Positions 7,428 through 36,247 of a DNA stretch of 64,000 nt are shown one piece after another. The position numbers and the translations under genes were made by a program. Below the pieces are notes generated by a model. It made no database searches, was not told the origin of the DNA, and saw nothing but the letters and a program-made list of their open reading frames with translations. The stretch is from a phage: the sequence record PZ000613.1. One strand, 5' to 3'. Each line of letters starts with the position of its first letter. Position 1 is the stretch's first letter.

Positions 7428-7467
7428 GTTATGTTAGCTCCTATACTATTAATAATTAATTTGTCGA

Positions 7468-8789: not shown

Positions 8790-8798
8790 TCGACGTCC

Positions 8799-11042: not shown

Positions 11043-11102
11043 CTATTCTCTCCCTCGGTTGATAGCTTAAATAAAAGAAGGGAGGACAAACCTCCCCTTA
11101 CT

Positions 11103-12644: not shown

Positions 12645-12760
12645 ACTTCCTCCAGTTTAAAAATAGAAAAGGGAAAGTCCCTTCGTCAAAGAACCTCCCC
12701 TCTTCGTATAGGGTAACAAGTCTCCTAGCGCTTTACTAGAAGGGGAACCCTTTCCTTTAC

Positions 12761-13234
12761 TTAACTCTCGTCCGCTTCCTCCCCCTTTTCAGCGTCCTCA
12801 GAGTTGTCTTCTTCTGGAGGCATAACGTCGATACCAAGTGCTCCAGTCAAGAAGTCCTTGATTTGTGCATTCAATGATTCTTCGTTGATTACATTCTCTT
12901 CCTCAATCTTAACTTCAACAGAGGCCGCCTTAGGATATACCAGATCTGCAACTTTTGATGCAGCCTTGAATCTAAGATCAGGTGGAATATTAGGATCTTC
13001 GTAAATTTGAATTAACACTTCATCAGGAGACAAATGACTTGCAGCAACACGGTCCAACATTAATTGTGTCAGTTTACCTCTACTACCTTTGGGTCGTCCG
13101 AATTTATTTCCCTTTTGAAACTTCCCATTGCTTGGGTTCATACCACGGCTTTCGAGTTCTTCCGTTACTCCGGGTAATCTTCCTGTAACCTCAGCTACCT
13201 GTGCAGGCGTGAGTTCTCCGTTTTCTCCAAACAT
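12761..13234 (-). CDS. putative terminase small subunit / DNA-binding protein (157 aa)
   Basis: Directly upstream of the large terminase; N-terminal GNKFGRPKGS motif common in small terminases, acidic C-terminal tail. Confidence 0.45.
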   Translation of the reverse strand: MFGENGELTPAQVAEVTGRLPGVTEELESRGMNPSNGKFQKGNKFGRPKGSRGKLTQLMLDRVAASHLSPDEVLIQIYEDPNIPPDLRFKAASKVADLVYPKAASVEVKIEEENVINEESLNAQIKDFLTGALGIDVMPPEEDNSEDAEKGEEADES

Positions 13235-13290
13235 TTTATACTCCTTCTACATTATCAACAACACAAAAAGCCTCCCAAGGGAGGCAAACA

Positions 13291-13860
13291 TTACTTACAA
13301 TCACCAACGGACAGGTTGAACATCTTACCTAGAGCAATCGTCTCACCTTCCCACGGAAGTTCTGCACCCTTCTCTTCCTCTAAAAGAATAGAGCCGTCGA
13401 CCAAAAATTTTTCGTAGTCTCGCAGTGCGTCGTCTACTAACTCACTCTTGTGAATCCACGTAATTGTTTCTGTACCATCCTCTTCGATTCGAACATCACG
13501 ATGCCATTCATCTTTGGAGGTAATGTAATCATGGAGCATTTCATATTCAGCTTCTTCAATCATCTCAATCATTGCACGAGCATAGTCAGGGAGGTGATCA
13601 TGTTTAGTAGATTCGTATTCAACTACTTCCAGAGTAGATGGTGCTGATTTAGTTTTAGAATTAGGGCGAGTAGTATGAATCAAATCTAACATGTTTTTGT
13701 TCTCCGTAATATTTGGTTTAAGAATACTTCCACTATATAGATCTTGTACAGCCAGTCCTGAAACATTTCCCATAGTCTCTAAATGCTGTAAGCTACAACC
13801 AGAGCGACACAGCTGTGAATTGTATTCGTTAAGGTCCATCGCTTTGATTAAATTATTCAT
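13291..13860 (-). CDS. hypothetical protein (189 aa)
   Basis: ORF with RBS in the late (minus-strand) block; no motif recognised. Confidence 0.4.
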   Translation of the reverse strand: MNNLIKAMDLNEYNSQLCRSGCSLQHLETMGNVSGLAVQDLYSGSILKPNITENKNMLDLIHTTRPNSKTKSAPSTLEVVEYESTKHDHLPDYARAMIEMIEEAEYEMLHDYITSKDEWHRDVRIEEDGTETITWIHKSELVDDALRDYEKFLVDGSILLEEEKGAELPWEGETIALGKMFNLSVGDCK

Positions 13861-14158
13861 CTGTCTCTCCCTTGCTGTAGTCTTTGTATGTTTCTACTTT
13901 GTAAGTGCGGAATGCTCTGAAGAAGAGCCAACCTAAGCTACTCACATCAATTGTAATATCGAAATCTGTTTCATCATCTAAGTCAACAAGTCGACCTAGG
14001 CATGTAGCTTCCATCCCTTCTTCAGAGTCACTGTTGACCACGAAAGCGTATGTCTCCGTTCTGAACCGAGGCACAATCTCTGATAAAAAGTCTAATACTA
14101 AATTCATAATTCTTCTCCTCTGAATAAGAGTATAAAGGGCTAGGCATATCGTCATCAA
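13853..14158 (-). CDS. hypothetical protein (101 aa)
   Basis: ORF overlapping the start of the downstream gene by 8 nt; no motif recognised. Confidence 0.35.
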   Translation of the reverse strand: MMTICLALYTLIQRRRIMNLVLDFLSEIVPRFRTETYAFVVNSDSEEGMEATCLGRLVDLDDETDFDITIDVSSLGWLFFRAFRTYKVETYKDYSKGETDE

Positions 14159-17165: not shown

Positions 17166-17194
17166 TTGACACCAGAAAAAGCCTGATATATAGT
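17166..17194 (+). promoter_or_regulatory. strong sigma70-type promoter TTGACA-17-TATAGT with A-rich UP element
   Basis: Upstream AAAAAGAGTATTGACA closely resembles classic strong phage early promoters. Confidence 0.6.
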
Positions 17195-17612: not shown

Positions 17613-17641
17613 TTGACAGCTAAAACAACATGATTCATAAT
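17613..17641 (+). promoter_or_regulatory. strong sigma70-type promoter TTGACA-17-CATAAT with A-rich UP element
   Basis: Consensus -35, 17-nt spacer, CATAAT -10, upstream GAAAAAGATTAAAAAAGC. Confidence 0.6.
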
Positions 17642-21561: not shown

Positions 21562-21858
21562 ATGACTTTAGAAGTATATAAATTCCTTTTTGTAAGCTGT
21601 TTAACTATCAGCGTTATAGGGTTTATTGTTCTCAGAAACAAAGCAGCAAGCTGGGAGAGAATGTATAAATCTCTAGTCCGAGTGGATGAGATGTATAATG
21701 AGAAAGTTAAAGTAACACTCAACGATCTTATTATGCAAGTTGAAGACAGAAACAAACGTCTTCAGAACCTCAACCACGAGGTGTTACGCCTTGCTCGTGC
21801 TAATGAAGACTTGCGAGTGGCTATTGCTAAGCAGCAGGAGATTAACAGTGAAAGTTAA
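21562..21858 (+). CDS. membrane-anchored coiled-coil protein (99 aa)
   Basis: RBS AAAGGTGA; N-terminal transmembrane helix followed by charged helical region. Confidence 0.45.
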   Translation: MTLEVYKFLFVSCLTISVIGFIVLRNKAASWERMYKSLVRVDEMYNEKVKVTLNDLIMQVEDRNKRLQNLNHEVLRLARANEDLRVAIAKQQEINSES

Positions 21859-22084
21859 TATTAAATCCGATCGTACAATGCTTCGCTTAAACAACATGAA
21901 GCCGGGCGTTCTATTTGAGCGTAAAGATTCCCTTTACATTAGAACCGACACCCTGTACGCAGATAATTATGTCAACTGTGTTGATGTGGTAACTGGAAAG
22001 CTCATGCCTTTTAAACGGGATGAAGTCTGCCAAGTACGTAACGATCTCCACATAACCAACATAGAGGCTAAAGATGAAGATTGA
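21848..22084 (+). CDS. small paralog-family protein (GTG start, 78 aa)
   Basis: Shares the L-x-x-G-x-x-F ... V-x-L ... V-P-V pattern with eight other small ORFs in 22074-28669. Confidence 0.4.
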   Translation: MKVNIKSDRTMLRLNNMKPGVLFERKDSLYIRTDTLYADNYVNCVDVVTGKLMPFKRDEVCQVRNDLHITNIEAKDED

Positions 22085-22325
22085 TCTTGAGTTGAAGAGT
22101 CCGGAGCTAAAAGTGGGTGATTTGAAACTTGGAGATGTATTCCAAGTGAAGGCAACATGTATTGACCATTACATGATTGTTCAGCTATACACACCACATG
22201 TATCAGAGACTGATCTTCGGGATGGTTGTGTGGTTCTTAGTTTACGTACTAATCAAGTGATGAAGCTAGACCCAAACTTACCTGTTTCAGTTATCCATGA
22301 TGTAGTAATTACTAATCGGAAGTGA
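22074..22325 (+). CDS. small paralog-family protein (83 aa)
   Basis: Family pattern KVGDLKLGDVFQV ... VLSLRT ... LPVSVI. Confidence 0.5.
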   Translation: MKIDLELKSPELKVGDLKLGDVFQVKATCIDHYMIVQLYTPHVSETDLRDGCVVLSLRTNQVMKLDPNLPVSVIHDVVITNRK

Positions 22326-22633
22326 GTATGTCTGTTTCTTCTTTTGTAATATGCAAACCAACCGTAATAATTCGTGCTCAAATGAAACACTGTTCTGGTG
22401 TCACATATCTAGAGTTCGATCATAGTGATAGCCGATATAATCCCGGATTTACAGTGGCGATTAAATCTCCGTGGTTTAATATGACATTGTTGCCGGAAGA
22501 AGTAGAGTCAGCGTGTCGTGGCATCAAGACGGGGAGTTTGAGTCTTCTGTCCTCTAACTTAGGGGACGAGTTTATGCCTTTGATTCAGAAAGGTGTGGCT
22601 AACGTTCGTAAGATGAAGGAAGCGGTTAAGTAA
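22322..22633 (+). CDS. hypothetical protein (103 aa)
   Basis: ORF with ATGA-type overlap to the upstream gene. Confidence 0.45.
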   Translation: MSMSVSSFVICKPTVIIRAQMKHCSGVTYLEFDHSDSRYNPGFTVAIKSPWFNMTLLPEEVESACRGIKTGSLSLLSSNLGDEFMPLIQKGVANVRKMKEAVK

Positions 22634-23121
22634 CACCGACTTATAGCCCTTGTGTCTATCAGAGGGCTATGTGAGGGTGTTCCTCATTAACTTATTAATT
22701 CAGGCATATGCCACACCGCTAGGGAGAGCTTGCTCGAACATCCGGTGTTAGACTAAAACCTGTTAATTTTCGAAAGACTTTCTGATATGTAGGGGTACAT
22801 ATTGGTTTGGGATTCAGGAGACTTCCTAGGGGTAGGGAGTCTTCACCAGTTGGAATAAGAGATAGCTCTAGAACCTGAACTCTTAGGCAGAGAAGGTCGG
22901 CAATGAGTACGCGGTCAGGATTAGTCTACTGACTAGGGCTATCCCTTATATCAACTGGCAATAATGCCTCCACTAACAAAGAGAGATAGGTATGAAAGTA
23001 TCAACCAAACGTATGAACCGCCCTGAACGTATGGATGCAGTAGCTAACGGTGCTCTGAAACTGGAAGGCTTCTGGATTCATGCAATGTCAGCTGTTCGTA
23101 ACAAGCAAGGCAATTGGACCT

Positions 23122-23331
23122 ATGCCGGTTAAAACAGTTCATGTAATAGGTATGCGAGAAATCATTCGCATTGCCTTGATGGAACACACTGAACGTAACA
23201 TGCAACTAACTCAAATCTCTAAGTGTCTTAATTGCTCAAGAGATGTGGCTAAGGAGTTGATGTTCGCATTCCTGTATAATGCAGAAGACGGGACGCTACA
23301 GAATCATCTGATTCGTGGTGTGAGTCAATAA
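23122..23331 (+). CDS. hypothetical protein (69 aa; start uncertain)
   Basis: ORF ending just before a terminator; start chosen at the first ATG after the upstream small ORF. Confidence 0.35.
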   Translation: MPVKTVHVIGMREIIRIALMEHTERNMQLTQISKCLNCSRDVAKELMFAFLYNAEDGTLQNHLIRGVSQ

Positions 23332-23336
23332 AGAGA

Positions 23337-23366
23337 GGCTGCCTTCGGGCGGCCTTTGTTGTTTTA
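23337..23366 (+). terminator. rho-independent terminator
   Basis: AGGCTGCC-TTCG-GGCGGCCT hairpin followed by TTGTTGTTTT. Confidence 0.55.
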
Positions 23367-23409
23367 ACTAAGGGACAACTCTTACTTAAACTAACAAGAG
23401 GAAGCTAAA

Positions 23410-23586
23410 ATGTCTAAGCAAACAATCAAACATACGCAAGCTGGTTACTCTTATGTCAACTCTCCTTGCTGTGGTGCTCGTGTTAATCTGGTTAAGGAAG
23501 AGGTTCGTATCGTTCAGCGTGGAGCTACTGTTGTTCGTTCATGCTGTGTCTGTGGTAATGATATTTTCATTAAAGGTAAAGTATGA
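23410..23586 (+). CDS. small Cys-rich zinc-ribbon-like protein (58 aa)
   Basis: RBS GAGGAAG; paired Cys clusters (CCGARV ... CCVCGND); stop overlaps the next start. Confidence 0.4.
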   Translation: MSKQTIKHTQAGYSYVNSPCCGARVNLVKEEVRIVQRGATVVRSCCVCGNDIFIKGKV

Positions 23587-23810
23587 ATATTGTTTTAGAT
23601 TCAACTAAACCAAATCAAAAGACTTTCCGAGATTTGAGTGTGGGTTCTGTTTTCTCACTTGATGATTGCCCTTGTGATAGAAAGAAATTCTACATGAAGA
23701 TTGGGGGAGGTTTTTCTGTAAATCTATCACACCCTGCTCATAAACTCTCATTCGCTGGTCAAGTACCAGTTACAGAATATAAAGCAACTCTTAAGTTAGA
23801 GGAAATGTAA
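23583..23810 (+). CDS. small paralog-family protein (75 aa)
   Basis: Family pattern FRDLSVGSVFSL ... VPVTEY. Confidence 0.5.
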   Translation: MNIVLDSTKPNQKTFRDLSVGSVFSLDDCPCDRKKFYMKIGGGFSVNLSHPAHKLSFAGQVPVTEYKATLKLEEM

Positions 23811-24061
23811 TGAAAAACTTCCAAGCTGCACCAATAACTAAAGTGATTGAAGTTGACGGTGTAATGATGACTGTTCCTCTGAACACTCGTTACATTGCAA
23901 TTGACAAGATGGGTTATGTATGGGCTTGGAAGATTAAGCCTAGCTATAACGCATTATTTGATGAGTTTGTTTGTACTGGTACGTACAGTCCTACATTCTT
24001 AGGTTTGTTTGGAGAGTTTGACGGTCAGTATAAAATCATCACTCTCCCTGCTTGTGCTTGA
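23810..24061 (+). CDS. hypothetical protein (83 aa)
   Basis: ORF with overlapping stop/start to the upstream gene. Confidence 0.45.
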   Translation: MKNFQAAPITKVIEVDGVMMTVPLNTRYIAIDKMGYVWAWKIKPSYNALFDEFVCTGTYSPTFLGLFGEFDGQYKIITLPACA

Positions 24062-24068
24062 GGTTAAT

Positions 24069-24245
24069 GTGAGAGTAAAGCAAATCCATAAAGACTACTG
24101 GAGAGTCGCTGATAGTGAAAACCAAAGGCTTGCAGGAATCTCTCTTATAGGTCAATGGTTTGTTGTAACTTCTGCCGCAGGTCAGTATGTTGGACGGTTT
24201 CGTTCCCTAAATGAAGCTATATCCTTTTCTATCAAAGGTTCTTGA
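24069..24245 (+). CDS. hypothetical protein (GTG start, 58 aa)
   Basis: ORF in operon context; start uncertain. Confidence 0.3.
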   Translation: MRVKQIHKDYWRVADSENQRLAGISLIGQWFVVTSAAGQYVGRFRSLNEAISFSIKGS

Positions 24246-24246
24246 T

Positions 24247-24411
24247 ATGATCAAGTGGTTTAAACGTTTCTTCCATCTCCATGATTGGGAGACAATAAAA
24301 GAAATTCGTTTACACATATACAATGAGATCGGTCAAATAGAAGACACAGGTACTCGTTATATACTTCGATGTAAAACATGTGGTCATATCACCAAGCGAG
24401 ATATGATCTAA
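24247..24411 (+). CDS. small zinc-finger-like protein (54 aa)
   Basis: CKTCGH motif; starts 1 nt after the upstream stop. Confidence 0.35.
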   Translation: MIKWFKRFFHLHDWETIKEIRLHIYNEIGQIEDTGTRYILRCKTCGHITKRDMI

Positions 24412-24419
24412 ATAATTCT

Positions 24420-24495
24420 GCGCTCTTAGCTCAATGGATAGAGCAGTAGCCTTCTAAGCTATTGGTTACAGGTTCGAGTCCTGTAGGGCGCACCA
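24420..24495 (+). tRNA. tRNA-Arg (anticodon UCU), CCA encoded
   Basis: Cloverleaf read by eye: acceptor GCGCTCT/AGGGCGC, D-arm GCTC-AATGGAT-AGAGC, anticodon stem GTAGC/GCTAT with loop CTTCTAA (UCU), T-arm ACAGG-TTCGAGT-CCTGT, discriminator A plus CCA. Confidence 0.85.
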
Positions 24496-24635
24496 CATTT
24501 AGGGCTAGTATGGGTGCGGCACCAGAGTTAGTGTATCCCTGTTGAGGCAAGTGCTTTTATAACAGTGGGAATTACTTTCTTAGTGAGCTTCTGGTTCGAT
24601 TCCAGATAGTCCACCAAATCAAATAGGAGGTAGTT

Positions 24636-24917
24636 ATGAGTTGGGGTGGTGTAATATCCTTAATCTGTATCTTCCTTGTCTGCATAGCCCTTACAGGCTG
24701 CGTACAGAGCCGTCCTGATGGATGGTGTGCAGTAGCAGTGGAAGGTATTTGTGTTTCTCGCTGGCACCAAGGCGAGAAGGTTCCTTCTGGTGAAATTGAT
24801 ATGCGTTACAGTGGTATCTCATGTCTTAACGGTGCAGCAGTAGATGAGGAGACTAAAACCTTATCCAATGCTCAATGGTGTGGCGGTTCTGTAACAACAA
24901 CCGGTAAGGAGTGGTAA
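24636..24917 (+). CDS. lipoprotein (93 aa)
   Basis: Strong RBS AGGAGG; signal peptide ending in lipobox LTGC; several further Cys residues. Confidence 0.55.
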   Translation: MSWGGVISLICIFLVCIALTGCVQSRPDGWCAVAVEGICVSRWHQGEKVPSGEIDMRYSGISCLNGAAVDEETKTLSNAQWCGGSVTTTGKEW

Positions 24918-24918
24918 T

Positions 24919-25167
24919 ATGACAGCTCATTATTGGAATACAAAGAAGCTTCTTGAAGAGATGGCTGGAGGTAGTAGGGTACAGTTAATCTCTATGCTTC
25001 GAATGGATGCTCGCTCCTTACGCTTCCAAGTAAAGATTGGTAACTTCAGTGACGGCCTTTATTACACGCTGAAGGAAAGGATTAAGAAGACTCACTTCAT
25101 CATGTACGGAATCAAACCGAGAACGTACGTTAACTACATGTATTGGAATACATGCTACGATAATTGA
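24919..25167 (+). CDS. hypothetical protein (82 aa)
   Basis: ORF starting 1 nt after the upstream stop. Confidence 0.4.
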   Translation: MTAHYWNTKKLLEEMAGGSRVQLISMLRMDARSLRFQVKIGNFSDGLYYTLKERIKKTHFIMYGIKPRTYVNYMYWNTCYDN

Positions 25168-25174
25168 GGTTATT

Positions 25175-25396
25175 ATGAAACTAGACTCTAAGCAGTCACT
25201 TAAAACCGTTGAGCTGTCCACTCTGCCAAACGGAAGTATTTTTGGTCATGATAAACACTTCTGGATTAAAACAGACATCATAAACGATGGATATATCACC
25301 TGTGTCAATCTTTGGAACGGCTCAGTGGATGGCTATCGCCCTAGCGCAAAGGTGGTGCCTCAGCCTGATGCAAAGGCTACAGGTTTGGTTTACTAA
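25175..25396 (+). CDS. small paralog-family protein (73 aa)
   Basis: Family pattern TVELSTLPNGSIF ... ITCVNLWNGSVDG. Confidence 0.5.
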   Translation: MKLDSKQSLKTVELSTLPNGSIFGHDKHFWIKTDIINDGYITCVNLWNGSVDGYRPSAKVVPQPDAKATGLVY

Positions 25397-25698
25397 GGAG
25401 TTCAGTATAAATGAAACTCAAACGAATGCTTTTTCGAAATGGAATGTACACTCTCCGAGAATCCCCTAAAGGGGACACTACAAAGTGGAGTGTAGGGGAT
25501 TGGATTTCATTCATAGATGAGAAGGGCAGCTGGATTCTCGAGTAACAGGAGCCTGTATGAGTTGTTTTGGTGGCGGTGAAGTGGATGACGATGATGATAT
25601 GGAATCTAACGGTACATGTCCTGATTGTGGATGTGAGACGTGGGATGGCGTGTCAGTGTATCCTGCCTGTAGTTACTCACCAGTGATCTGTAAAACAT

Positions 25699-25956
25699 GT
25701 GGAGATCAACCTTGTGACCAGTCTTGTTAGTGTGTTAATAGCCTATTTAATAGGGTCAGTAGTATCAGGTGTTCTAATTAAGATCATAGATGTTAAAGGT
25801 AATCAGTGTTTCAGAGGTTGGGATGGTGAACCAGATCTCGGAAAGATAGCAGCTATGGTTTTCTTATGGCCTATTATTGCTGTACTGTTTATAGCACTTG
25901 TAGCATGGGCTGCCCTTTGGGATTTCATCCTTCCTAACAAAAAGTATGAGGACTAA
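25699..25956 (+). CDS. small membrane protein (start uncertain)
   Basis: Two predicted transmembrane helices; shares an LWPI motif with the 26099 ORF. Confidence 0.35.
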   Translation: MEINLVTSLVSVLIAYLIGSVVSGVLIKIIDVKGNQCFRGWDGEPDLGKIAAMVFLWPIIAVLFIALVAWAALWDFILPNKKYED

Positions 25957-26098
25957 TGACTGAAGAATTTTTAAAGTGGTTTGGTGATACCTTCAAAGAG
26001 TATCTATTCTCTCCAGAAGACTTTGAAGAACTGAAAACCTACACTTGGTTGGCTTGGAGAGATAGCCGACGAAAGTTGAACAAGTAAGAGACGATTAA

Positions 26099-26356
26099 AT
26101 GGGTTTACTTGATATTTTTATCTCAGTTTACTTTATTGGAGTATTCCTTTCTGTTTTAGTGCTGAAACTACTATACAAGAAAGGTCTACTAAAAGGGGTC
26201 ATTACAACAGGGTCTACCAGCTCTGAACCTGATGAGATGATGGTTGTGATCTTAATTGTGTTATGGCCCATCTCAATACTGGCAGGAGTCTGTTATCCGA
26301 TAGGTTGGCTTCTGTCTAAAGCATATGATGCAGTTATACGTTTTATATTTAAGTAA
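26099..26356 (+). CDS. small membrane protein (85 aa)
   Basis: Two hydrophobic helices (ISVYFIGVFLSVLVL, VVILIVLWPISILAGV). Confidence 0.45.
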   Translation: MGLLDIFISVYFIGVFLSVLVLKLLYKKGLLKGVITTGSTSSEPDEMMVVILIVLWPISILAGVCYPIGWLLSKAYDAVIRFIFK

Positions 26357-26596
26357 TATCGTGAAGGATTCTTACGAGAGTCCTTTGAGATAGGACTTCA
26401 GATCTCCTATCAAACTAACATTCATGTAACTAGCCCATAAGGGCGTTACCCTTTAATAACCCAGCCCACTAAGGGGGCGGGAGTTTAGTGCTGGATTGGC
26501 TTTACGCTTATTCCTACAAAGGCAACCGATTGTTAGATCTTACATGCAATATTAACTAATAGGGTAAGGGAGGATTCGTCCCCTCCCCCTATTTTA

Positions 26597-26625
26597 TTGA
26601 ATCTTTATCTAAGCAAGTCTTATAT
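26597..26625 (+). promoter_or_regulatory. candidate sigma70-type promoter TTGAAT-17-TTATAT
   Basis: Follows a GGGAGG...CCTCCC hairpin; about 20 nt upstream of the RBS of the 26647 gene. Confidence 0.35.
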
Positions 26626-26646
26626 AAATGTTTAATTGGAGGATGT

Positions 26647-26958
26647 ATGAAAGCACGAAGAACTATATGGACTCCTATGCAGATTGAAAACCTTCGGAGA
26701 CTAATCAAAGAGTACTCGGTTCAAGAAGTTGCTCAGATTATGAATGTAACGGAGAATGCTGTTAACACAGCTTGCACTAAATTCGGAATATCAAGAGCTT
26801 CAATCCGAGTTAAATGGTCTGAAGAAGAAGACCAGTTCCTTATCCGTAATGCTGGGTTCATGTCTATTCAGAGAATGGCTGACATGCTCGGTAGAAGTTA
26901 TGCTGCTGTACAGAACAGGGCATGTATGCACCTTAACATTAGCCTCAAACTTAAATAG
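26647..26958 (+). CDS. putative DNA-binding regulator with two helix-turn-helix-like repeats (103 aa)
   Basis: RBS GGAGGA; internally repeated segment (VQEVAQIMNVTENAVNTAC / IQRMADMLGRSYAAVQNRAC). Confidence 0.45.
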   Translation: MKARRTIWTPMQIENLRRLIKEYSVQEVAQIMNVTENAVNTACTKFGISRASIRVKWSEEEDQFLIRNAGFMSIQRMADMLGRSYAAVQNRACMHLNISLKLK

Positions 26959-26966
26959 GAATCGAT

Positions 26967-27221
26967 ATGAAAGTTAACGAGTTGAACAAAACCATCAAGA
27001 CTGTGAAACTCCACACTCTAAAGAATGGTGACACATTCCGTAAAGAGGAGAACGGCCCAATCCACATGGTGTGTACTGCGTCGTCTACCAATTGGGTGGA
27101 AGTTGCACGAGATCGAATTGTGTGCGTAAGACTGGAAGATGGCAGTCTGAGTGGTCCGGTTGACGGCATCTCTGTCATACCGGTCAAAGTTGAAGCTAAC
27201 GTTATTAAGGGTTCTAAATGA
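26967..27221 (+). CDS. small paralog-family protein (84 aa)
   Basis: Family pattern TVKLHTLKNGDTF ... VRLEDGSL ... VIPV. Confidence 0.55.
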   Translation: MKVNELNKTIKTVKLHTLKNGDTFRKEENGPIHMVCTASSTNWVEVARDRIVCVRLEDGSLSGPVDGISVIPVKVEANVIKGSK

Positions 27222-27457
27222 AGATTACAAAGAGAGTGGATCGTGTCCCACTTGAGTCCTTAGAAAACGGGGCCGTGTTTAAGCATCCAGACAGTGACAC
27301 ACTCTATGTTAAAGGTTTTGTTCACGGCACACCTAATGTGTCCGTAAATAATGGACGTACTCTATCTCTTCGTCTACATGACGGGCTTGTAACAGCACCT
27401 GATTCTACGTGCCAAGTTATCCCTGTGTCAGCTGAACTTTTAGTGAGTGATTGCTAA
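27218..27457 (+). CDS. small paralog-family protein (79 aa)
   Basis: Family pattern RVPLESLENGAVF ... LRLHDGL ... VIPV. Confidence 0.55.
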   Translation: MKITKRVDRVPLESLENGAVFKHPDSDTLYVKGFVHGTPNVSVNNGRTLSLRLHDGLVTAPDSTCQVIPVSAELLVSDC

Positions 27458-27702
27458 TGAAAATCATCCCAAAGAAAAAGGATAATACGGTTCGATTGGA
27501 AACAATCATTCCCGGAAACCCTTTCGTGGTTCAGAACGGAAGTGCTTCTCCTCAGTATTATATGAGGGTTGAAAATGCTTCTGGTAATATCCGTATAGCT
27601 AGTGGTTGGATTCCTGTAGTGAATCTATTCACAGGTGTGCTGTGTGTTAAAGGTGCTGACGAACAGGTTGAAATGATTCGTATGTCAGTTGTTCAGGAGT
27701 AA
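27451..27702 (+). CDS. small paralog-family protein (83 aa)
   Basis: Family pattern TVRLETIIPGNPF ... IPVVNLFTGVL. Confidence 0.5.
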   Translation: MLMKIIPKKKDNTVRLETIIPGNPFVVQNGSASPQYYMRVENASGNIRIASGWIPVVNLFTGVLCVKGADEQVEMIRMSVVQE

Positions 27703-27704
27703 TC

Positions 27705-27965
27705 ATGAGCACTATTCATATTAAAGTTAAGAGCAAAGAGGAAACAGTCCTCCGTGTTAAAGATCTAAATATGTCAGATGTGTTCACTCTCCAAGAGTGC
27801 CATCTTCAAAAGACTTACATGCTGACAGCCAAGAGTAGGGGCAGTCAACCTGCTGGAGCTGTTAACCTAGGCACTGGAGAACTACGTGTCATCTCTGGTG
27901 ATATGGTTGTTGGTGAGAAGTTTAGTAAAGCTGAAATTATCTTAACTCCACAGGAAAACAAATGA
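27705..27965 (+). CDS. small paralog-family protein (86 aa)
   Basis: Family pattern VLRVKDLNMSDVF ... VNLGTGEL. Confidence 0.5.
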   Translation: MSTIHIKVKSKEETVLRVKDLNMSDVFTLQECHLQKTYMLTAKSRGSQPAGAVNLGTGELRVISGDMVVGEKFSKAEIILTPQENK

Positions 27966-28184
27966 GACGTAAAGCATATTCTTATGACGATATGATTAAC
28001 CAGAAAGGTTTTGGTCAACGACAGCCTGATGGTTCAATTATCTGGTTTGTAAACGGACAGAAAAAGGTAACTAAATAAGCCCTCTTCTCTCCTCCTTTTA
28101 GTACTATGACGCCTCTTTTTAGACGGCCCAATTTGCGTAGGGAATTCCCTCTACGCAGCCATGACTTTTTAAGGAATTTCCCCT

Positions 28185-28418
28185 ATGTCTAAAGTAAGCG
28201 CAATCGATGCAATCCGTCAACCGTTCCAGTTCCAATCCAAATCAACCCAAACCTTCAGTGAACCTAAGCAAATTCGCTTGGGCGGCACGGAGAAAACTGT
28301 GTTCGATCTGGCTAAAAACAAGAGCGTTACCGTAGTTGATGGTGGCACTCTGGTTAACGTTTCCCATCGCATCCGCACTGGCAAAACTGCCAAAGATCGT
28401 GCTAAGAAAGGTCTGTAA
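28185..28418 (+). CDS. hypothetical protein (77 aa)
   Basis: ORF preceded by the conserved 19-nt intergenic motif and a hairpin. Confidence 0.45.
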   Translation: MSKVSAIDAIRQPFQFQSKSTQTFSEPKQIRLGGTEKTVFDLAKNKSVTVVDGGTLVNVSHRIRTGKTAKDRAKKGL

Positions 28419-28669
28419 TGCAAATTTCCAATAAAACACCTCCTGAGCCTACTGTTCAAGTAAAAGATATGACACCGGGAGATGTGTTTCGTTCGGTTGA
28501 ATATCCGGGGGAATTCTTTATCCGAATCCCTTCTGCCTCTGTTGATGGTGTCACTAAGCCGGTAACAGCAGTTCAGTTGAGCACAGGTCATCTCTTCCGT
28601 TTAGAGCTTGACATGGCAGCTATTCCTGTTCCGACAGCAATCCTCCGCTTCGACGGAGACACAGAGTAA
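28418..28669 (+). CDS. small paralog-family protein (83 aa)
   Basis: Family pattern TVQVKDMTPGDVF ... VQLSTGHLF ... IPV. Confidence 0.55.
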   Translation: MQISNKTPPEPTVQVKDMTPGDVFRSVEYPGEFFIRIPSASVDGVTKPVTAVQLSTGHLFRLELDMAAIPVPTAILRFDGDTE

Positions 28670-29058
28670 CATCTATAGCCCTCGTAAGTATCAGAGGGCT
28701 ATGTGAGCTATTCTGGCTCAACTAACCTAATCTTAATATATTTCCCGTATGGGGCCGATGCTAGGGCGAGGAGTGTTCCTCAAACATCCGTCGGATAGAT
28801 ATTTTAAGAGCAGGTTATCCACAGATATTGGGTAATATCTTTTTTTGGATTTAAAGCTTGGCTCTTTTCGGAGAGTCCTTTTTTAAATTCAACGAGAGGA
28901 AATATGTCTAAATTAGATTTAAAACTGCTAGCAGCAGCGGTAGTGATTTGTGCACTAGCACTGGTAACGCAGAGAACATCTGGATTTATTCAGTGTTTCT
29001 TTTCTGGGCAATCCACTTATCAGTGGGTTATTGACGAGTGTAAACAACAGGAGTAAGT

Positions 29059-29432: not shown

Positions 29433-30629
29433 ATGTTTCCAGTAACATTAGAAGATACTGAAGGTAATGTTTTAACGGTCAACCCCCCTTGTTATGGGTT
29501 CCTTCAACTTCGAAACTATAATGGCGGCGTTGATGAAAATGATGACGAAGATGATGACTACTTCGACCCTAACATGTATGAGGCAACTCATGGATGGAAT
29601 ATGCACGTTCGAGTGTGGCATGAAGAAGCTAACGTTCGTAGTGCTGATGGGGAAGAGTTCCTGTTAAGCCGAGAGATGGATATGTGTAAAATCAAACATA
29701 TCTGGAACTCCGGAACTCACATGAAGATGTTAGGTTTTAGACGTTGGAGTGATGAAAAACCTGTATCCGCAGCTTTAGGTTGGGGTGCAATCGATCATGA
29801 AGGCGAGCTTAAAAATAACATCGAACGTTGGAACGACAAAAACCCTGAACACCGAACCACACCTCGTGCTGTACTGGAAGCTATGGAAGCATTTGTGGAC
29901 AAAGATCGTCCCTCCTGTTTACGCTGGCACGATAAAGGTTTTATGGGGGTAGCAACTGAGAACATCCCTGCTGATCGTTGTCTGTTCTATTTGATGTTAG
30001 ACCGAACCTTCTATTGTGAAGATGAAGAAAGTCAAGTTGAAACCTTCCTCCATAAATGGTTGGTTGAAGGCTGGACAATCCTTCAGGCTTATGTTTACTC
30101 ACGAATGGTTAGCACTTACACTAACCTCTTGGGTGAAACGAAAGCAACTCTGGTTGGTAATGATTGGGATGCTTGTATCTTCCCAGCGTCGCTATTTACA
30201 GTTGGTATGGCTGATAAATACGCTGAAGCATTTCAAGTGCCTTGGCGTCAACAGTCATACAGAGATGGATGCGGTCACTTCCGTGATGAAGACTTTAAGT
30301 GGATCCATTATGAGAATGATGAAACAGCAGAATTACGAGTTAACAACTCAATGTTCTTGCCAGTGATGCACCCCGATCTAGTAAAAGATGGTTCAGAGAT
30401 ACTTAAAGGTGATAATCTTTTGGTTAACTTTACCCGTCGCGTGTCTAAAAATGAGAGAACAGCTAACAAGCTAATCTACGGTATTCGTGCCGAGGCTAAA
30501 GACCTGTTCAACATCTACAACATCATTCAGCGATTTAGTAGTGGAACTCTGGACCAAAGTTCGGAGTATTCAGTGATTCCATCCTCTGAGTGGGATGGTA
30601 TTATGAGCGGATTATTTTTAGGAAAATAA
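29433..30629 (+). CDS. hypothetical protein, first gene of the amidoligase cassette (398 aa)
   Basis: ORF with RBS GAGG; tightly spaced with the downstream cassette genes; no motif recognised. Confidence 0.5.
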   Translation: MFPVTLEDTEGNVLTVNPPCYGFLQLRNYNGGVDENDDEDDDYFDPNMYEATHGWNMHVRVWHEEANVRSADGEEFLLSREMDMCKIKHIWNSGTHMKMLGFRRWSDEKPVSAALGWGAIDHEGELKNNIERWNDKNPEHRTTPRAVLEAMEAFVDKDRPSCLRWHDKGFMGVATENIPADRCLFYLMLDRTFYCEDEESQVETFLHKWLVEGWTILQAYVYSRMVSTYTNLLGETKATLVGNDWDACIFPASLFTVGMADKYAEAFQVPWRQQSYRDGCGHFRDEDFKWIHYENDETAELRVNNSMFLPVMHPDLVKDGSEILKGDNLLVNFTRRVSKNERTANKLIYGIRAEAKDLFNIYNIIQRFSSGTLDQSSEYSVIPSSEWDGIMSGLFLGK

Positions 30630-30639
30630 AAGGTTAGTT

Positions 30640-31611
30640 ATGTCAATCTCCACAACGATCGTACCTCTGAATCTTCAACAAGATTTAGGGGAACAGAAGT
30701 TCTTAGGTCGTGGGTGCTTCGGTATTCACAACTACATGCAAGGCCAATGCGTAATTGATATTAATGGCGAAGTTATCACGGAGGAAGGGCGTTATAGACG
30801 CTTCAACCGTGATATCAACTTGCAATTGGAGATGTTGAATTACTGGACTCACTCTTTTCACGGTCATGTTGCATCTGATATTGAAAAGAACCTGGTTGAA
30901 ACAGCAGACATTATGAACTCTATGTCTTGCTATCGTGACGTATTTACAATCACTTCAGCGAATAGTGTAGCTGTCAACCTCCGTGAGCATCCAGCAGATC
31001 AAATCTTCACAGGACTTATGCTCTTTCGTAGTATTCTGGAAGGGCAATATCGTGGAATGGATTTCCTAGCAGAAGGAATTGAAGACAGGGAAGAGTGGCT
31101 GAAGCGTAAACGCATCGGCATCGCTTTAGTGTTAGCTGGGTTGGGTCGTGACTTCTTCGGTGGATGGTCTCAACGAGGAAGAGCCAATGGGAGTAGTGAG
31201 AGCACATCTATTGTTGTCAACAATAATATGTCAGCAGCAGCCTTCCTTCCTTTGGTTGTAGACTCTGATGAATACACGAAGCAAGTATGGGTTCAAAACC
31301 CCTTCGGTGTTGGCGACAACGAGAATGGTTATGTTCGTAACCATAACCAAGATGCCTTACGAAGATTTGCTCGTGCTAAAGATCAATACCCTGGCGAGTA
31401 TGAAACAATGTCAGAGTGGTTAAGACTCTGGTCCAACTGTCATGGTCACAAACGTGAAGCAATAGACAATAAGTTGGAAAACATTACAGTACAAAACTTT
31501 ACAGCCCGACTAATTCAGCGTACTGGAGCAGATTCCGGTCTTACTCTTGAAGAAGTTGGTAACACAATCTCATCTCTCTTTTCTGAACTAGTGGAGTATT
31601 ACAATGACTAA
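30640..31611 (+). CDS. hypothetical protein in the amidoligase cassette (323 aa)
   Basis: ORF overlapping the downstream amidoligase start; no motif recognised. Confidence 0.5.
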   Translation: MSISTTIVPLNLQQDLGEQKFLGRGCFGIHNYMQGQCVIDINGEVITEEGRYRRFNRDINLQLEMLNYWTHSFHGHVASDIEKNLVETADIMNSMSCYRDVFTITSANSVAVNLREHPADQIFTGLMLFRSILEGQYRGMDFLAEGIEDREEWLKRKRIGIALVLAGLGRDFFGGWSQRGRANGSSESTSIVVNNNMSAAAFLPLVVDSDEYTKQVWVQNPFGVGDNENGYVRNHNQDALRRFARAKDQYPGEYETMSEWLRLWSNCHGHKREAIDNKLENITVQNFTARLIQRTGADSGLTLEEVGNTISSLFSELVEYYND

Positions 31612-32410
31612 GCGCAAATTTCTTATCGGCTCTGACCCTGAAATGTTTGTTCGTACTAGCAACGGTATCATCACCTCTGTAGCCGGTTTATTAGGCTGCT
31701 CTAAGGACGATAAGATCGCTCTGGCTAAGGATGTTCGTCTCCAAGAGGACAACGTACTGGCTGAGTTTGATATTGACCCACAGAGCGGTTTTGAAGCGTT
31801 TAACGATAACATGCAACGTGGTATTGATCTCACCAATAATGTCCTGAACAAACTGGACATGGAAACAGCTCCGGGTGTTAGCTCTCACATCTTCACTGAA
31901 GAAGAGATGAAGACTTTCAATGAATCAGCGTTCATCTTCGGATGTACTCCTGACTTCAACGCTTTCACTGGTCAGAAAAACCCATCCCCAACTTCTCAGA
32001 ACAAGGGACTTCGTACTGCCGGTGGTCACGTACACCTTGGTGTGGTTGGTGCTTTGGATATCACTCTTCAAACTCAGATGATGCTTGGCGTGCTGTGTGA
32101 CTACTTCCTGTCACTCCCAGCAGTAATTATGGACAAAGACACTCGCCGTAAAGAACTCTACGGTAAAGCATCTGCAATCCGTTATAAAGACTATGGTATT
32201 GAATACCGTTCGCTGTCTAACTTCTGGATTAGTGATCGTGAAAACCGTAAGTTTGTTTACGATCAGGTTGACAAGGTTGTTCAGCAGTGTGATATGTCTA
32301 CTCTCATGGCATTGCACTCTCGCCTTCCGATTGAGAAGCTTCATGAAATCATTAACGGTAACAACGTTAAAGAAGCGGACCAGCAGATCAAACTCCTTCA
32401 GGTAGCATAA
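31604..32410 (+). CDS. GCS2/amidoligase-type carboxylate-amine ligase (268 aa)
   Basis: N-terminal LIGSDPEMF (acidic E/D motif) and central GGHVHLG (HVH motif), typical of the glutamine-synthetase-like amidoligase fold. Confidence 0.55.
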   Translation: MTKRKFLIGSDPEMFVRTSNGIITSVAGLLGCSKDDKIALAKDVRLQEDNVLAEFDIDPQSGFEAFNDNMQRGIDLTNNVLNKLDMETAPGVSSHIFTEEEMKTFNESAFIFGCTPDFNAFTGQKNPSPTSQNKGLRTAGGHVHLGVVGALDITLQTQMMLGVLCDYFLSLPAVIMDKDTRRKELYGKASAIRYKDYGIEYRSLSNFWISDRENRKFVYDQVDKVVQQCDMSTLMALHSRLPIEKLHEIINGNNVKEADQQIKLLQVA

Positions 32411-32419
32411 GAGGTTATC

Positions 32420-33037
32420 GTGAGCTTAGTAGCTGATTTTTCTCATTACTATAATGGTACATGGATTGCTAAACGAGCAGGTAATATCAACCTTCCATGT
32501 TTTGTGATTGGTGTTGAGCAGAGCGGTAACTTCCGCAGTGATGACTTCTCTCACGAAGCAGAGCAGGCTCTGTACTTTGTTGTAGAGCAGTGGTACAAGA
32601 ATGAGCATGGGAATCTCCGAAACACTACGATGAATATTCCAGTGTTCGACCCAACCTTGATTCTTGAATCACCTGATGTTGGTTATCTGTTCCATAACGG
32701 TAACACTGTAAGCTGGACTCATATCAACCCTGTTCGACAGAGAGCGAAGGGTTTGATGGGTAATAAGATTAGAAACGCTCCGGGGATTGGTCGTTCTATC
32801 TCTGGTGAAATGGTTTACAGTCTGTTCAATCCTGAATTTGATGGATTGGTTACTCGTTATATTTACATCAATCCTACAGATGGTAAAGTGCATTATAAAG
32901 GTGCACTGGTAGGTCAGGTAGATCTGGAAGCACCTCGTGACTCTTACGGTCAACAACCGATGCGACTTCTGGAATATTTTCATCACATCTCTGAAAACCT
33001 TAGCAATTATAATATTACGTTGGTGGATTCGTTATGA
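32420..33037 (+). CDS. hypothetical protein in the amidoligase cassette (205 aa)
   Basis: ORF with ATGA-type overlap to the next gene. Confidence 0.45.
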   Translation: MSLVADFSHYYNGTWIAKRAGNINLPCFVIGVEQSGNFRSDDFSHEAEQALYFVVEQWYKNEHGNLRNTTMNIPVFDPTLILESPDVGYLFHNGNTVSWTHINPVRQRAKGLMGNKIRNAPGIGRSISGEMVYSLFNPEFDGLVTRYIYINPTDGKVHYKGALVGQVDLEAPRDSYGQQPMRLLEYFHHISENLSNYNITLVDSL

Positions 33038-34137
33038 CAACTGTAGCGCAAACTTTTGGATATCGAGAAGGTCGTTTAACTGAGGCGCATAGTTCAATTG
33101 CACTTCAGTGCGGTGTCGGTATTGAACTTGAACTCGAAGGTTCTGAACATATCGAAGCAGATATGTGGGATTGCACAGAGGATGGTTCCCTGCGTAATGG
33201 TTGTGAAATGGTATGTTCACGGCCTTACAATGGACAGGAGTTGTTAGACGCTATCAACAACCTGAGTGAAGCAGTAGCTGAATCGCACGCCGAGGGGACT
33301 TGGCGTTGCTCTACTCACGTTCATATGGATATGAGGGATGCTGATAGTAATATCCTCAAGAAGACCATCCTTGCTTGGACCTTCTATGAAAAGATGCTGT
33401 TCAAGTGTTCAGGCTACCATCGTTACCGTAGCAATTTCTGCCCTGCGTTTGCAGTGGTACAAGCGCAGGTAATGAATGCCTCTGACGCATTTAACTACGA
33501 TGGTGAAGAGTTCTTCAACCGTCTGGTTCGTTCATGGGATAAATATACATCTCTGAACCTTCTGCCACTTGCCCAATACGGTTCAATTGAGTTCCGTATC
33601 AGTGAGCCTAAGTGGAAACGTGGTCAACTTCTCAATCTGGTTAACCGCTTCTTGATGTTGAAGAAGCTGGCTTTAGATAACGCAGACATGAGCAATGATC
33701 AGTTTATCGAGCACTTAAATACTGTACGATTTGCCCCAATGCTTCCTTACCTTCCTCTGGATTACAATCTGGATGAATCGGATTTGCATTCAGGGTATTG
33801 TATGGCCCGTGATGTTTTGTATTGTCGTTCTCATGAAGTAGAACAGTCTGGTCGTATTCGTTTACGTCGAACCAACTCCAACGGAGAGGTTCTTGTTGAC
33901 TTACGTCTTATGTCAGACTTCTACGGATTCCTTGGGTATGTCCGAGGGAACGCTAACAATTTGTACCAAGAGATTCTGGTTATGCTTCGTACAGCAGACC
34001 TATCTCAAGTAAGACACGCTCCAGAACAACGTATCCGTGCTATTTTTGACTTACTTCGTGAGTCAGGTCACAGTGATAACAATATCACAGGGTACATTCC
34101 AGACCATCTGGAAAATCAGTTAGAGCAAGCGCTGTAA
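33034..34137 (+). CDS. second GCS2/amidoligase-type ligase (367 aa)
   Basis: GVGIELELEGSEH (E-x-E motif) and CSTHVHMDM (HVH motif). Confidence 0.55.
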   Translation: MTTVAQTFGYREGRLTEAHSSIALQCGVGIELELEGSEHIEADMWDCTEDGSLRNGCEMVCSRPYNGQELLDAINNLSEAVAESHAEGTWRCSTHVHMDMRDADSNILKKTILAWTFYEKMLFKCSGYHRYRSNFCPAFAVVQAQVMNASDAFNYDGEEFFNRLVRSWDKYTSLNLLPLAQYGSIEFRISEPKWKRGQLLNLVNRFLMLKKLALDNADMSNDQFIEHLNTVRFAPMLPYLPLDYNLDESDLHSGYCMARDVLYCRSHEVEQSGRIRLRRTNSNGEVLVDLRLMSDFYGFLGYVRGNANNLYQEILVMLRTADLSQVRHAPEQRIRAIFDLLRESGHSDNNITGYIPDHLENQLEQAL

Positions 34138-34216
34138 TCAATGGGTGCCTCTGACAAAGGGGCACAATTTAAAGGTTAATTAGATGAAAGGGTTTACCCT
34201 TCAGGTGGATTAGAAA

Positions 34217-36247
34217 ATTTGTGGCATCGTATTAGCTGGCGGTAATCTGTCAAGCACTGATTTAGACGTATTTAACCAACTCTTTTATGCTGGGGTGTTC
34301 CGAGGGCAGCATTCCTCTGGTATCTTCGGTCAGCGTAAAAGCACTAAGGAAGTCTTCACTTATAAAGAAGCTCTTCCTTCTTTCGCATTCATCCTACAAG
34401 ATGAGTACAAGAAGCATACCACTGGTGAAACAGCTTACACTGTAGCACCTTCATGGATTGTTGGTCACAGCCGTCATGCAACGAAAGGTGCAGTTAACGC
34501 CAAGAACGCCCATCCTTTCCAACATGGTAACATCACTCTGGTTCATAACGGAACCTTGATGGACCAAGATCTGTTACCTGACAGCAAAAACTTCGAGGTA
34601 GACAGTGAGAACATCTGCCACTCTATTAACACAATTGGTGCAGCAGAGACTATTCAAAAGCTGGATGGTGCTTTCACTTTAATCTGGCATGATGCTTCTG
34701 ATAACCGCCTTCATATCATCCGTAACGAAGAGCGTCCATTCCACCTCGCACGTTGTAACAGAGATTGGTTTGGTGCTTCTGAAGAAGATATGTTGATGTG
34801 GATTCTGAAGCGTTCTAAGTCTCATAAGAACCGTATTGACGAGCATTTTGAATGTAAAGTTGGTACAGAGTATATCTTTGATATGTCAAACAACGGCATG
34901 ACTTTGGTTGAAGAGGTCGCCCACGAGCTTCCGGTTTTTACGGTAGCCAATCGTTGGGGCAGTTATTACTCGAACAACTACAGCCAAAGCAACTATCAAA
35001 GTTCCTCAAAAAGCAGTACAAGCAATCCTTACGACACGAAGCCGGGAGTGACAGCGGCAGACGTTCGTCGAAGAAACGCAGTGGTAAGTCAAAACAAAAT
35101 CGCAAGCGATCGAAACATTGATATTCGCCGCGATATGACTGTGGAAATCACTCCGCATGAGTTTGTTCCTTATGCAACTGCTGGTGCTGTTCCTTCTCGT
35201 GGTAAGATGATTGGTTATATCTACGATGAGAAATCTCAAGAGTATATCGAAGGGGATGTTCATAACGTAGACATTAAGGCTTATCAGGATGCCCTGAAAG
35301 ACCCTAAAATTGTTTACCGTGGGACAGTATCCTGTATCTCCGAAGTTAATGCTATGGTTCGCTTAGTGATCACAGCAGGTCGTTTTGTTGACCCATCTCT
35401 GGAGAAAAAGGAGCCTGAGTCTACTACTGCTGACTTTGATGATGATATCCCTTTTGACATGAATGATAGTTTCGTCAACAAGAATGGCGTTACTATCACT
35501 CGTAAATTCTGGGAAGCACATTCTCATGGTGATTGTGGTGGTTGTGACAAACACATTGATTGGAAGGATGCACCTAAAGCAGTCTTCGCATATCAGTGCT
35601 ACTGGCATCCTGAATGTCTGGAAGGTTTGACTAAACCTAAAGAGGAAGAAGAGGAGGAGACTCCTATTGGTGTTTGTGAAATCTGTGGTGAAGTTAAAAC
35701 AGAGAATGAGTTCGATGATGAGCTTAGTCGTCTTCGTGGTGAAGATATCTGTAAAGTCTGCGCTGTAGAAGTAAAGAAGAAAGTATCTAATGCTACGATC
35801 AAAGATGGTTATGTCTGGATTAAAGCGACAGATACAACAAACGCCCGTCGTCCTGAGTTTGCTTTACGTGTAACTGAAGACATGATCGGTCGTATGACGG
35901 TATTACCTTCCTCAGCGAAACAGACAGGCATCACTCTGGAGGATGTTGTTGATGCTTATGTTGAGAAACGTAGCAACAGTATTTTTGCAATCTCAACTAA
36001 GCCAAAAAAGGAGGAACCTGCTGAGAAAGCAGGTGTGTTTCCTGAATCACGAACAGCTCTCCGCAAAACTGTTGTCAGCTTCGACGGAAACCGAAGCACT
36101 GACTTCACCAAAGCCATGTGGTCAACCCTCGGATACTGCTCAGAGTGTTTTAAGCAGATTCCGTGGCGCGATGCTGAAAGTTGTACGCTTGGTTCTATGA
36201 ATCAAGTTTATTGTAATTCTCCTAAATGTTCATTGAATAGAGGTTAA
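34217..36247 (+). CDS. class-II (Ntn) glutamine amidotransferase domain protein with Cys-rich C-terminal region; apparent AUU start (about 676 aa)
   Basis: In-frame ATT-TGT-GGC-ATC-GTA right after a TAG gives the canonical GATase-II N-terminus (M)CGIVLAGG; further motifs FRGQHSSGI, GHSRHATKG, NAHPF, HNGTLMD; C-terminal half has paired Cys clusters. The ORF track starts at the internal GTG 34295. Confidence 0.6.
   Translation: MCGIVLAGGNLSSTDLDVFNQLFYAGVFRGQHSSGIFGQRKSTKEVFTYKEALPSFAFILQDEYKKHTTGETAYTVAPSWIVGHSRHATKGAVNAKNAHPFQHGNITLVHNGTLMDQDLLPDSKNFEVDSENICHSINTIGAAETIQKLDGAFTLIWHDASDNRLHIIRNEERPFHLARCNRDWFGASEEDMLMWILKRSKSHKNRIDEHFECKVGTEYIFDMSNNGMTLVEEVAHELPVFTVANRWGSYYSNNYSQSNYQSSSKSSTSNPYDTKPGVTAADVRRRNAVVSQNKIASDRNIDIRRDMTVEITPHEFVPYATAGAVPSRGKMIGYIYDEKSQEYIEGDVHNVDIKAYQDALKDPKIVYRGTVSCISEVNAMVRLVITAGRFVDPSLEKKEPESTTADFDDDIPFDMNDSFVNKNGVTITRKFWEAHSHGDCGGCDKHIDWKDAPKAVFAYQCYWHPECLEGLTKPKEEEEEETPIGVCEICGEVKTENEFDDELSRLRGEDICKVCAVEVKKKVSNATIKDGYVWIKATDTTNARRPEFALRVTEDMIGRMTVLPSSAKQTGITLEDVVDAYVEKRSNSIFAISTKPKKEEPAEKAGVFPESRTALRKTVVSFDGNRSTDFTKAMWSTLGYCSECFKQIPWRDAESCTLGSMNQVYCNSPKCSLNRG

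Follow-up and report, generated by a model that had tools for sequence, protein, structure and literature searches.

Nine small, diverged members of an undescribed phage protein family in the early region of a phiEco32-like phage

Small proteins with no assigned function are encoded in the early or middle gene clusters of several virulent phages, among them gp21 of N4, ORF.65 of PaP3, gp7 of LUZ24 and nine proteins of the Escherichia phage phiEco32 (phi32_95-98, 104, 109 and 113-115). The window analysed here, a 64,000-nucleotide (nt) stretch of phage DNA (sequence record PZ000613.1), carries nine open reading frames (ORFs) between positions 21848 and 28669 that are related to them, as against the single copies found in N4, PaP3 and LUZ24. 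The nine proteins and their orthologs are already present in databases as hypothetical proteins or PHROGs, whereas the unity of the family, its fold and its paralogy appear not to have been described. PHROGs spreads the nine over eight families (phrog_6570, 7832, 7431, 16423, 12612, 8365, 9955 and 10911), all labelled unknown function; the window proteins match these groups at expectation values (E) down to 8e-49, with extensive cross-matching between groups. One family is therefore split there into at least eight groups, and its unity, fold and multi-copy nature are not recorded. A literature search found no paper naming these PHROGs or describing the family as a unit, its fold or its paralogy. 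Scans with Pfam, NCBIfam and PADLOC of the nine proteins and 22 relatives (with Pfam, also of 136 sequences) gave nothing consistent, and the PADLOC defence models returned noise only (E 0.03 to ZorC in one of the 22 sequences). An earlier note on this DNA, made without database searches, had not recognised the family, and no curated family exists in these three collections.

Family membership and predicted fold

The nine ORFs, proposed in the earlier note as "at least nine" paralogs, are all present on the + strand where that note had placed them (Table 1), with the exception of one start codon: the seventh ORF more likely begins at ATG 27457 (MKIIPKK...) than at TTG 27451, because the ATG start matches the phi32_96 annotation and the M-K-[IV] N-terminus of the family. 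Eight of the nine use ATG. Shine-Dalgarno-like sequences precede most of them, that of 27457 being only weak. The shared T-V-x-L.../V-P-V pattern noticed earlier is borne out by alignment and extends to the family consensus MKI..(8-10)..tV.L..L..GDvF......YMK......V.L..G.l......V.PV; across 136 aligned sequences F24 never varies, and G21 and G59 are each conserved in 90% or more.

Diversification is as strong as had been proposed. The paralogs are mutually 10-30% identical, and pairwise phmmer comparisons are significant for some pairs only: E is 1e-7 for 26967 and 27218, which are mutual best matches, about 1e-4 among 21848, 25175 and 26967, 2e-3 for 27705 and 28418, and above 0.2 for 27451 against the other members. 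Profiles are more sensitive. When a profile of eight members was run on the 392 six-frame ORFs of the window, the omitted member was always the top non-training match (E 3.7e-10 to 5.4e-3), and the next ORFs had E of at least 0.14. A profile made only from 123 relatives outside the Gordonclarkvirinae, each less than 40% identical to any member, recovered all nine (E 9e-20 to 1.5e-8), with the next ORF at 0.41. A tenth member sought in the window with three different profiles was not found, the best extra ORFs having E of 0.23-0.4. The leave-one-out and outgroup-only profiles thus show that the family is real and that exactly nine members, not more, are detectable in the window at profile sensitivity. 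By these comparisons, the nine ORFs are diverged members of one large, unannotated family, whose proteins stand alone and are about 70-86 aa long.

Structure prediction with AlphaFold2 (AF2) covered two of the nine members, 26967 and the most divergent one, 23583; the models were built from family alignments and so are not fully independent. Both are all-beta, with predicted local distance difference test (pLDDT) scores of 87.5 and 85.7, respectively, and in both the strands at the two termini pair with each other around a small barrel. They have many matches in common among the predicted viral structures of BFVD (searched with Foldseek). The models fall into the SH3-like fold class, a small, partly open barrel of five or six strands, with significant structural matches to several superfamilies, the best being the uL2 C-terminal domain, EF-P/eIF5A domain I, Spt5 KOW, CarD and the UvrD C-terminal domain. 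No solved structure closely matching the family model was found, and a profile search of all PDB sequences (E <= 10) returned noise only. The predicted fold of the family is accordingly given as an SH3-like small beta-barrel, with membership at the level of the fold only; this is in keeping with the small beta-rich domain that had been suggested from the sequence.

Early-region setting, distribution and evolution

A stretch of about 9 kb around the nine genes matched 143 phage records, the best being Kuravirus at 92-95% identity (including the Escherichia phages phiEco32, SU10, WFI101126 and Paul), which identifies the window, at the nucleotide level, as a Kuravirus, that is, a phiEco32-like podophage of E. 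coli. The nine-gene region is syntenic with phi32_95 to phi32_115 of phiEco32 and gp96 to gp114 of SU10. Published work assigns the equivalents in these two phages to the early class, transcribed from promoters at the head of the cluster by the sigma70 RNA polymerase of the host. In the window, two predicted sigma70-type promoters (Table 1) lie upstream of, and on the same strand as, a rightward early cluster that contains all nine genes; their positions agree with the published early promoters of phiEco32 and SU10, and GC skew (the imbalance of G and C between strands) indicates rightward transcription from about 18 kb to 60 kb. Location, synteny, ortholog class and promoter-like sites together place the nine genes in the early-expressed class of phiEco32-like phages, in line with the early region named in the earlier note. 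No family member is among the 34 proteins detected by SU10 proteomics, a result that is uninformative because the sample was polyethylene glycol-precipitated virions.

Table 1. Family members and near-consensus sigma70-type promoters in the window. aa, amino acids; OG, orthogroup; HMM, hidden Markov model; dN/dS, ratio of nonsynonymous to synonymous substitution rates, against orthologs; pI, isoelectric point.
Feature	Position	Strand	Description	OG	Leave-one-out E	Outgroup-only HMM E	dN/dS
Predicted promoter	17166-17194	+	TTGACA-17-TATAGT; consensus scan, 11/12 matches				
Predicted promoter	17613-17641	+	TTGACA-17-CATAAT; consensus scan, 11/12 matches				
Paralog 1	21848..22084	+	78 aa; GTG start; AGGAG ribosome-binding site; ortholog of phi32_115 / SU10 gp113	OG1	4.5e-4	1.7e-13	0.04-0.18
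Paralog 2	22074..22325	+	83 aa; 11-nt overlap with paralog 1; ortholog of phi32_114	OG5	1.6e-5	9.4e-11	0.08-0.32
Paralog 3	23583..23810	+	75 aa; most divergent of the nine; occupies phi32_109 slot, <50% identity to phi32_109	OG13	5.4e-3	1.5e-8	
Paralog 4	25175..25396	+	73 aa; ortholog of phi32_104 / SU10 gp102	OG2	4.7e-4	5.7e-17	0.06-0.14
Paralog 5	26967..27221	+	84 aa; opens tandem block; ortholog of SU10 gp98	OG9			
Paralog 6	27218..27457	+	79 aa; ATGA stop/start overlap with paralog 5; ortholog of phi32_97	OG7	1.7e-5		
Paralog 7	27457..27702	+	81 aa from the likely ATG start; ortholog of phi32_96	OG3	4.2e-6		0.11-0.29
Paralog 8	27705..27965	+	86 aa; ortholog of phi32_95 / SU10 gp96	OG4	1.5e-7	1.3e-12	0.14-0.38
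Paralog 9	28418..28669	+	83 aa; acidic, pI 4.8; slot holds membrane-protein gene phi32_92 in phiEco32; closest ortholog in Suseptimavirus EK010	OG11	1.1e-6	2.2e-15	0.19

Comparison with phiEco32, SU10, LAMP, EP335, EK010 and IMG/VR contigs gave dN/dS values of 0.04-0.38 at dS up to about 2, and the nine ORFs are therefore regarded as protein-coding genes under purifying selection. Four of them form the tandem block 26967-27965 described earlier; beyond the ATGA overlap at its first junction, the genes overlap by 1 base or are separated by 2 nt. A D5-like regulator gene (26647-26958) lies directly upstream of this block.

Across ten Gordonclarkvirinae loci, 83 members fall into 19 orthogroups (at least 50% identity), five of which occur in most genomes, the remainder being patchy. 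The lineage of paralog 7 is the most widely retained, and that of paralog 4 is present in nine of the ten loci. The window lacks two common orthogroups (the phi32_113 and phi32_109 types) and has two rare ones (23583 and 28418), the former, OG13, being confined to the window among the ten loci. The earlier note had proposed repeated duplication, and for this lineage that part is not supported in the form proposed. Each paralog has its own ortholog lineage conserved across genera; for eight of the nine, the best-scoring matches lie outside the subfamily and not among the paralogs of the same genome; and a search for DNA-level repeats among the nine genes, a sign of recent duplication, gave only an unrelated 34-nt hairpin repeat. 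These three observations argue for old, separately maintained lineages, with the caveat that the outside proteins had been selected with a profile of the nine and may lean towards its consensus. The set thus gives the impression of long-standing paralog lineages, or of acquired members, belonging to a pan-phage family. The sole mutual best matches among the nine, 26967 and 27218, look like the only local tandem duplication visible, so that at most one such event is suggested.

Copy number, which the note had proposed to compare across relatives, varies from 1 to 11 within the Gordonclarkvirinae. The window, phiEco32 and SU10 have nine members each, three IMG/VR Kuravirus contigs have 9-10, EP335 (Nieuwekanaalvirus) has 11, EK010 (Suseptimavirus) five and LAMP three, and the early-region locus of Bas92 retains a single member, of the 27457 type. 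Multi-copy sets also occur in Salmonella phage 7-11 (four members), in a 62-kb metagenomic phage contig with the same amidoligase module as the window (L013; five members within 20 kb), in a 191-kb phage contig (L016, Logan SRR22868748; seven genes, or eight domains, within 20 kb) and in a 183-kb phage contig (two members). In the 191-kb contig the seven genes, one of them a fused double domain, occupy locus positions 6962-13890, where they are intermingled with genes for DNA ligase, RNA ligase, glycosyltransferase and R2K ATP-grasp proteins; this set is an independent expansion of the family. The independent multi-copy sets in phage 7-11 and in two unrelated metagenomic phages (those with five and seven genes) show that multiplication is recurrent and not an oddity of Kuravirus.

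An exhaustive profile search of 1.84 billion cluster representatives yielded about 1,930 proteins with E <= 1e-3. Of the 150 that rank highest, 131 consist of a single domain, measure 60-95 aa and share the motif; double forms in tandem (several) and a form with five repeats (one) also occur. As a clue to function these fusions give nothing, since the double and five-fold forms hold the same domain only, and proteins of 201 aa, 388 aa and 2,217/2,667 aa have no useful Pfam domain. Two candidates, P0095 (NHL-like) and P0130 (FN3-like), were rejected as repeat-driven false positives. The giant proteins P0129 (2,217 aa) and P0150 (2,667 aa) contain many short segments of the "L.pGD.F" type that match the N-terminal half of the profile weakly, which may reflect either true homology or a coincidence of motif.

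Other searches reached less far: one word-indexed protein search found Kuravirus orthologs only and a second mostly such orthologs; tblastn of the family consensus against phage genomes, which is too insensitive, found Kuravirus and one Vibrio phage group only; and a locus search that included the neighbouring regulator gave four loci. Profile scans of genomes detected N4 gp21 (E 1e-19), PaP3 ORF.65 (4e-12) and LUZ24 gp7 (1e-13), the first two of which match the family by fold too. The Foldseek matches in BFVD come from dozens of phages and are, without exception, uncharacterised small proteins; their sources include PaP3, ZC08, N4 (gp21), several N4-like, T4-like, rV5-like and jumbo phages, and phages of Vibrio, Proteus, Erwinia, Dickeya and Serratia. 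Virulent phages of Gram-negative bacteria commonly carry members of the family.

Other features of the early region

The 34-nt direct repeat (22642-22675 and 28674-28707, 88% identical) contains an internal hairpin, TATAGCCCT-N12-AGGGCTATGTGAG. Its copies begin 5-9 nt past a stop codon, the second one after paralog 9, and have no Rfam match; the repeat may be a processing site or an unusual terminator. At the first copy begins a gap of about 360 nt (22634-22991) that has no coding-strand ORF of at least 40 aa. The equivalent gap in phiEco32, between phi32_113 and phi32_112, is likewise unannotated, and the gap could hold a non-coding RNA or a regulatory region. Midway through the early region lies a tRNA-Arg gene (anticodon TCT; 24420-24495), whose presence is conserved among related phages.

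Three small Cys-rich ORFs with paired CxxC-type motifs (23410-23586, 24211-24411 and 25557-25730; 58, 66 and 57 aa) are interspersed among the barrel paralogs and probably encode zinc-ribbon proteins. Two 85-aa proteins (25699-25956 and 26099-26356) are predicted to be two-helix membrane proteins; both carry E-P-D...L-W-P-I in the same register (BLASTP E 0.002 over 18 residues) and may be a second, weaker paralog pair of the early region.

Possible roles and comparison with known systems

The reading favoured here, tentatively and with a real prospect of being wrong, is that the nine genes encode non-enzymatic, paralog-specific binding proteins that are made early and most likely block or redirect host or defence proteins. 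The fold would serve as a rigid scaffold for variable outer positions, and each paralog would bind its own partner stoichiometrically, early in infection; that partner, most likely belonging to the host, to a defence system or to a competing element, would be blocked or redirected. The genes are regarded as accessory and conditionally useful, outside the core takeover programme. The pattern of conservation points in this direction. The entropy of the alignment columns is 2.44 bits between orthogroups, against 0.52 bits inside them. The columns that are conserved family-wide (I/V3, L17, G20, V22, the invariant F23, Y/W32, V48, L50, G53 and V64) are positions of the hydrophobic core and glycines, while exterior positions vary between paralogs and are conserved inside each lineage. 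Because only core positions and turn glycines are conserved throughout and the exterior is lineage-specific, a rigid, non-enzymatic scaffold is suggested; no polar residue is conserved family-wide, which makes an enzyme unlikely.

The accessory character of the genes is indicated by their turnover, with the 19 orthogroups and the 1-11 copies per genome of the ten Gordonclarkvirinae loci and Bas92, a viable relative that infects K-12 and keeps one copy. When 13 early proteins of LUZ24, gp7 included, were expressed in Pseudomonas aeruginosa, four inhibited growth and gp7 was not one of these, a result that fits an anti-defence or conditional role better than that of a shut-off toxin. Unusual resistance to restriction and other defences, for which no inhibitor is known, has been reported for the Gordonclarkvirinae and N4.

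Several points weigh against this interpretation. No family member has an experimentally established function, and neither a fusion nor a gene neighbourhood points to a target. Bas92, with one copy, and LAMP, with three, belong to a clade reported to be resistant to the defences tested and are not reported to be more sensitive; a large set of copies is therefore not what this phenotype requires on E. coli K-12. A part in host takeover or anti-defence, as raised in the earlier note, is plausible given the context, though tempered both by the harmlessness of LUZ24 gp7 to its host and by the single copy in Bas92. By fold, the closest matches are domains that bind RNA. The selection of the outgroup sequences with a profile of the nine also pulls them towards the consensus.

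The fold matches lead to a different proposal, that the proteins are small nucleic-acid-binding barrels (KOW/Tudor/Sm-like) which bind RNA or DNA, the ribosome or RNA polymerase and tune early transcription or translation. Four of the nine proteins are basic (pI 8.6-9.1), K/R is fairly conserved in the Y-M-K strand, and the tandem block follows a putative transcriptional regulator gene, in agreement with such a role. However, pI values of the nine span 4.8 to 9.1 and those of the wider family are acidic to neutral, with a median of 5.7; such a mixture argues against a uniformly nucleic-acid-binding family, and no basic or aromatic surface residue is conserved family-wide. Tudor and Sm profiles are unmatched, and for KOW and EFP_N (PF00467 and PF08207) no sequence among the nine or the 136 relatives reaches the gathering score, the one sub-threshold EFP_N match (E 0.015) being at noise level. 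A nucleic-acid-binding role is thus considered unlikely, if still worth weighing.

Competition between phages, or control of superinfection, with proteins of competing phages or mobile elements as targets, would suit accessory, fast-turnover early genes, and N4 gp21 adjoins a superinfection-exclusion gene and a lipoprotein gene. The proteins carry no membrane or signal features, however. This idea, which seems improbable, is indistinguishable on present data from paralog-specific binding of host or defence proteins because it invokes the same binding mechanism with another class of target.

Directly downstream of the small-ORF region, at 29433-36247, lies a conserved module whose genes carry, in relatives, the annotations COOH-NH2 ligase, amidoligase and glutamine amidotransferase. 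The family members could in principle be substrates or adaptors of this amidoligase / glutamine amidotransferase / ATP-grasp peptide-modification module, with which they co-occur in Kuravirus, Bruynoghevirus (PaP3, LUZ24), phage 7-11 and the 62-kb metagenomic phage, but shared ancestry of these podophages explains the co-occurrence. Members are also found in N4 and in two large metagenomic phages, at loci where no such module is seen. The nine C-termini all differ, and no polar motif, at the C-terminus or elsewhere, is conserved that might serve as a modification site. A role as substrates was rejected for want of a conserved modifiable motif, and the proposal as a whole is highly improbable. 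Chance or compositional resemblance, or non-functional remnants, might have accounted for pairwise similarities that are non-significant alone, such as those of 27451, but is refuted by the recovery of all nine and nothing else with both kinds of profile, by the dN/dS values across genera and by the confident, concordant models.

A wider proposal, although a doubtful one, would make the family an evolvable scaffold for binders that is shared across phages, the viral equivalent of polyimmunity arrays; each paralog would neutralise a different bacterial defence or host factor. The 9-11-copy sets of the Gordonclarkvirinae and the single copies of N4-like phages would then contribute to a broad defence resistance that is so far unexplained. 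The nine genes form a defined candidate set for binding-partner and anti-defence screens, and the one copy of Bas92 and three of LAMP, against about nine in most relatives, offer a natural experimental contrast. Recognition of a single SH3-like family merges at least eight "unknown" PHROGs and supplies a usable annotation profile for roughly 1,900 clusters of sequences that no Pfam or NCBIfam model covers and of which no member has been studied, in a family that recurs in early or accessory regions of virulent phages. Should the genes prove to be merely dispensable ORFans, the gain would be a tidier annotation only.

Among known protein families, the nearest by predicted fold are the SH3-like barrels of the KOW/EF-P domain I/uL2 C-terminal, Tudor/PWWP and FeoA/DtxR-SH3 types. 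The phage proteins differ from these in belonging to none of them by sequence profile (FeoA, PF04023, likewise gives no Pfam match), in standing alone, in having an extra N-terminal strand paired with the C-terminal strand, and in lacking the conserved basic residues or aromatic cage of those families. Two small binders provide precedents for the favoured reading, as functional analogies only. The VapX antitoxin (PDB 6zn8) is a small SH3-like protein that acts by binding in a conflict system; membership of the VapX type failed, as VapX was not returned by the PDB profile search (E <= 10), and no VapD-like partner lies near the nine genes, whose neighbours are other small early ORFs. The counter-defence protein Nip of Phi3T also binds through an SH3-like domain but, unlike the phage family, carries an added HU-like dimerisation domain, and no sequence relationship to it is detectable. 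In arrangement, the closest parallels are the paralog arrays of conflict systems, namely anti-CRISPR clusters and the SUKH polyimmunity loci, the latter reportedly described by Zhang, Iyer and Aravind in 2011. The window paralogs have a different fold, and a conflict role would be ascribed to them by analogy; like those arrays, they are small, highly diverged, tandem or clustered paralogs, each conserved in its own lineage, in an accessory region of fast turnover.

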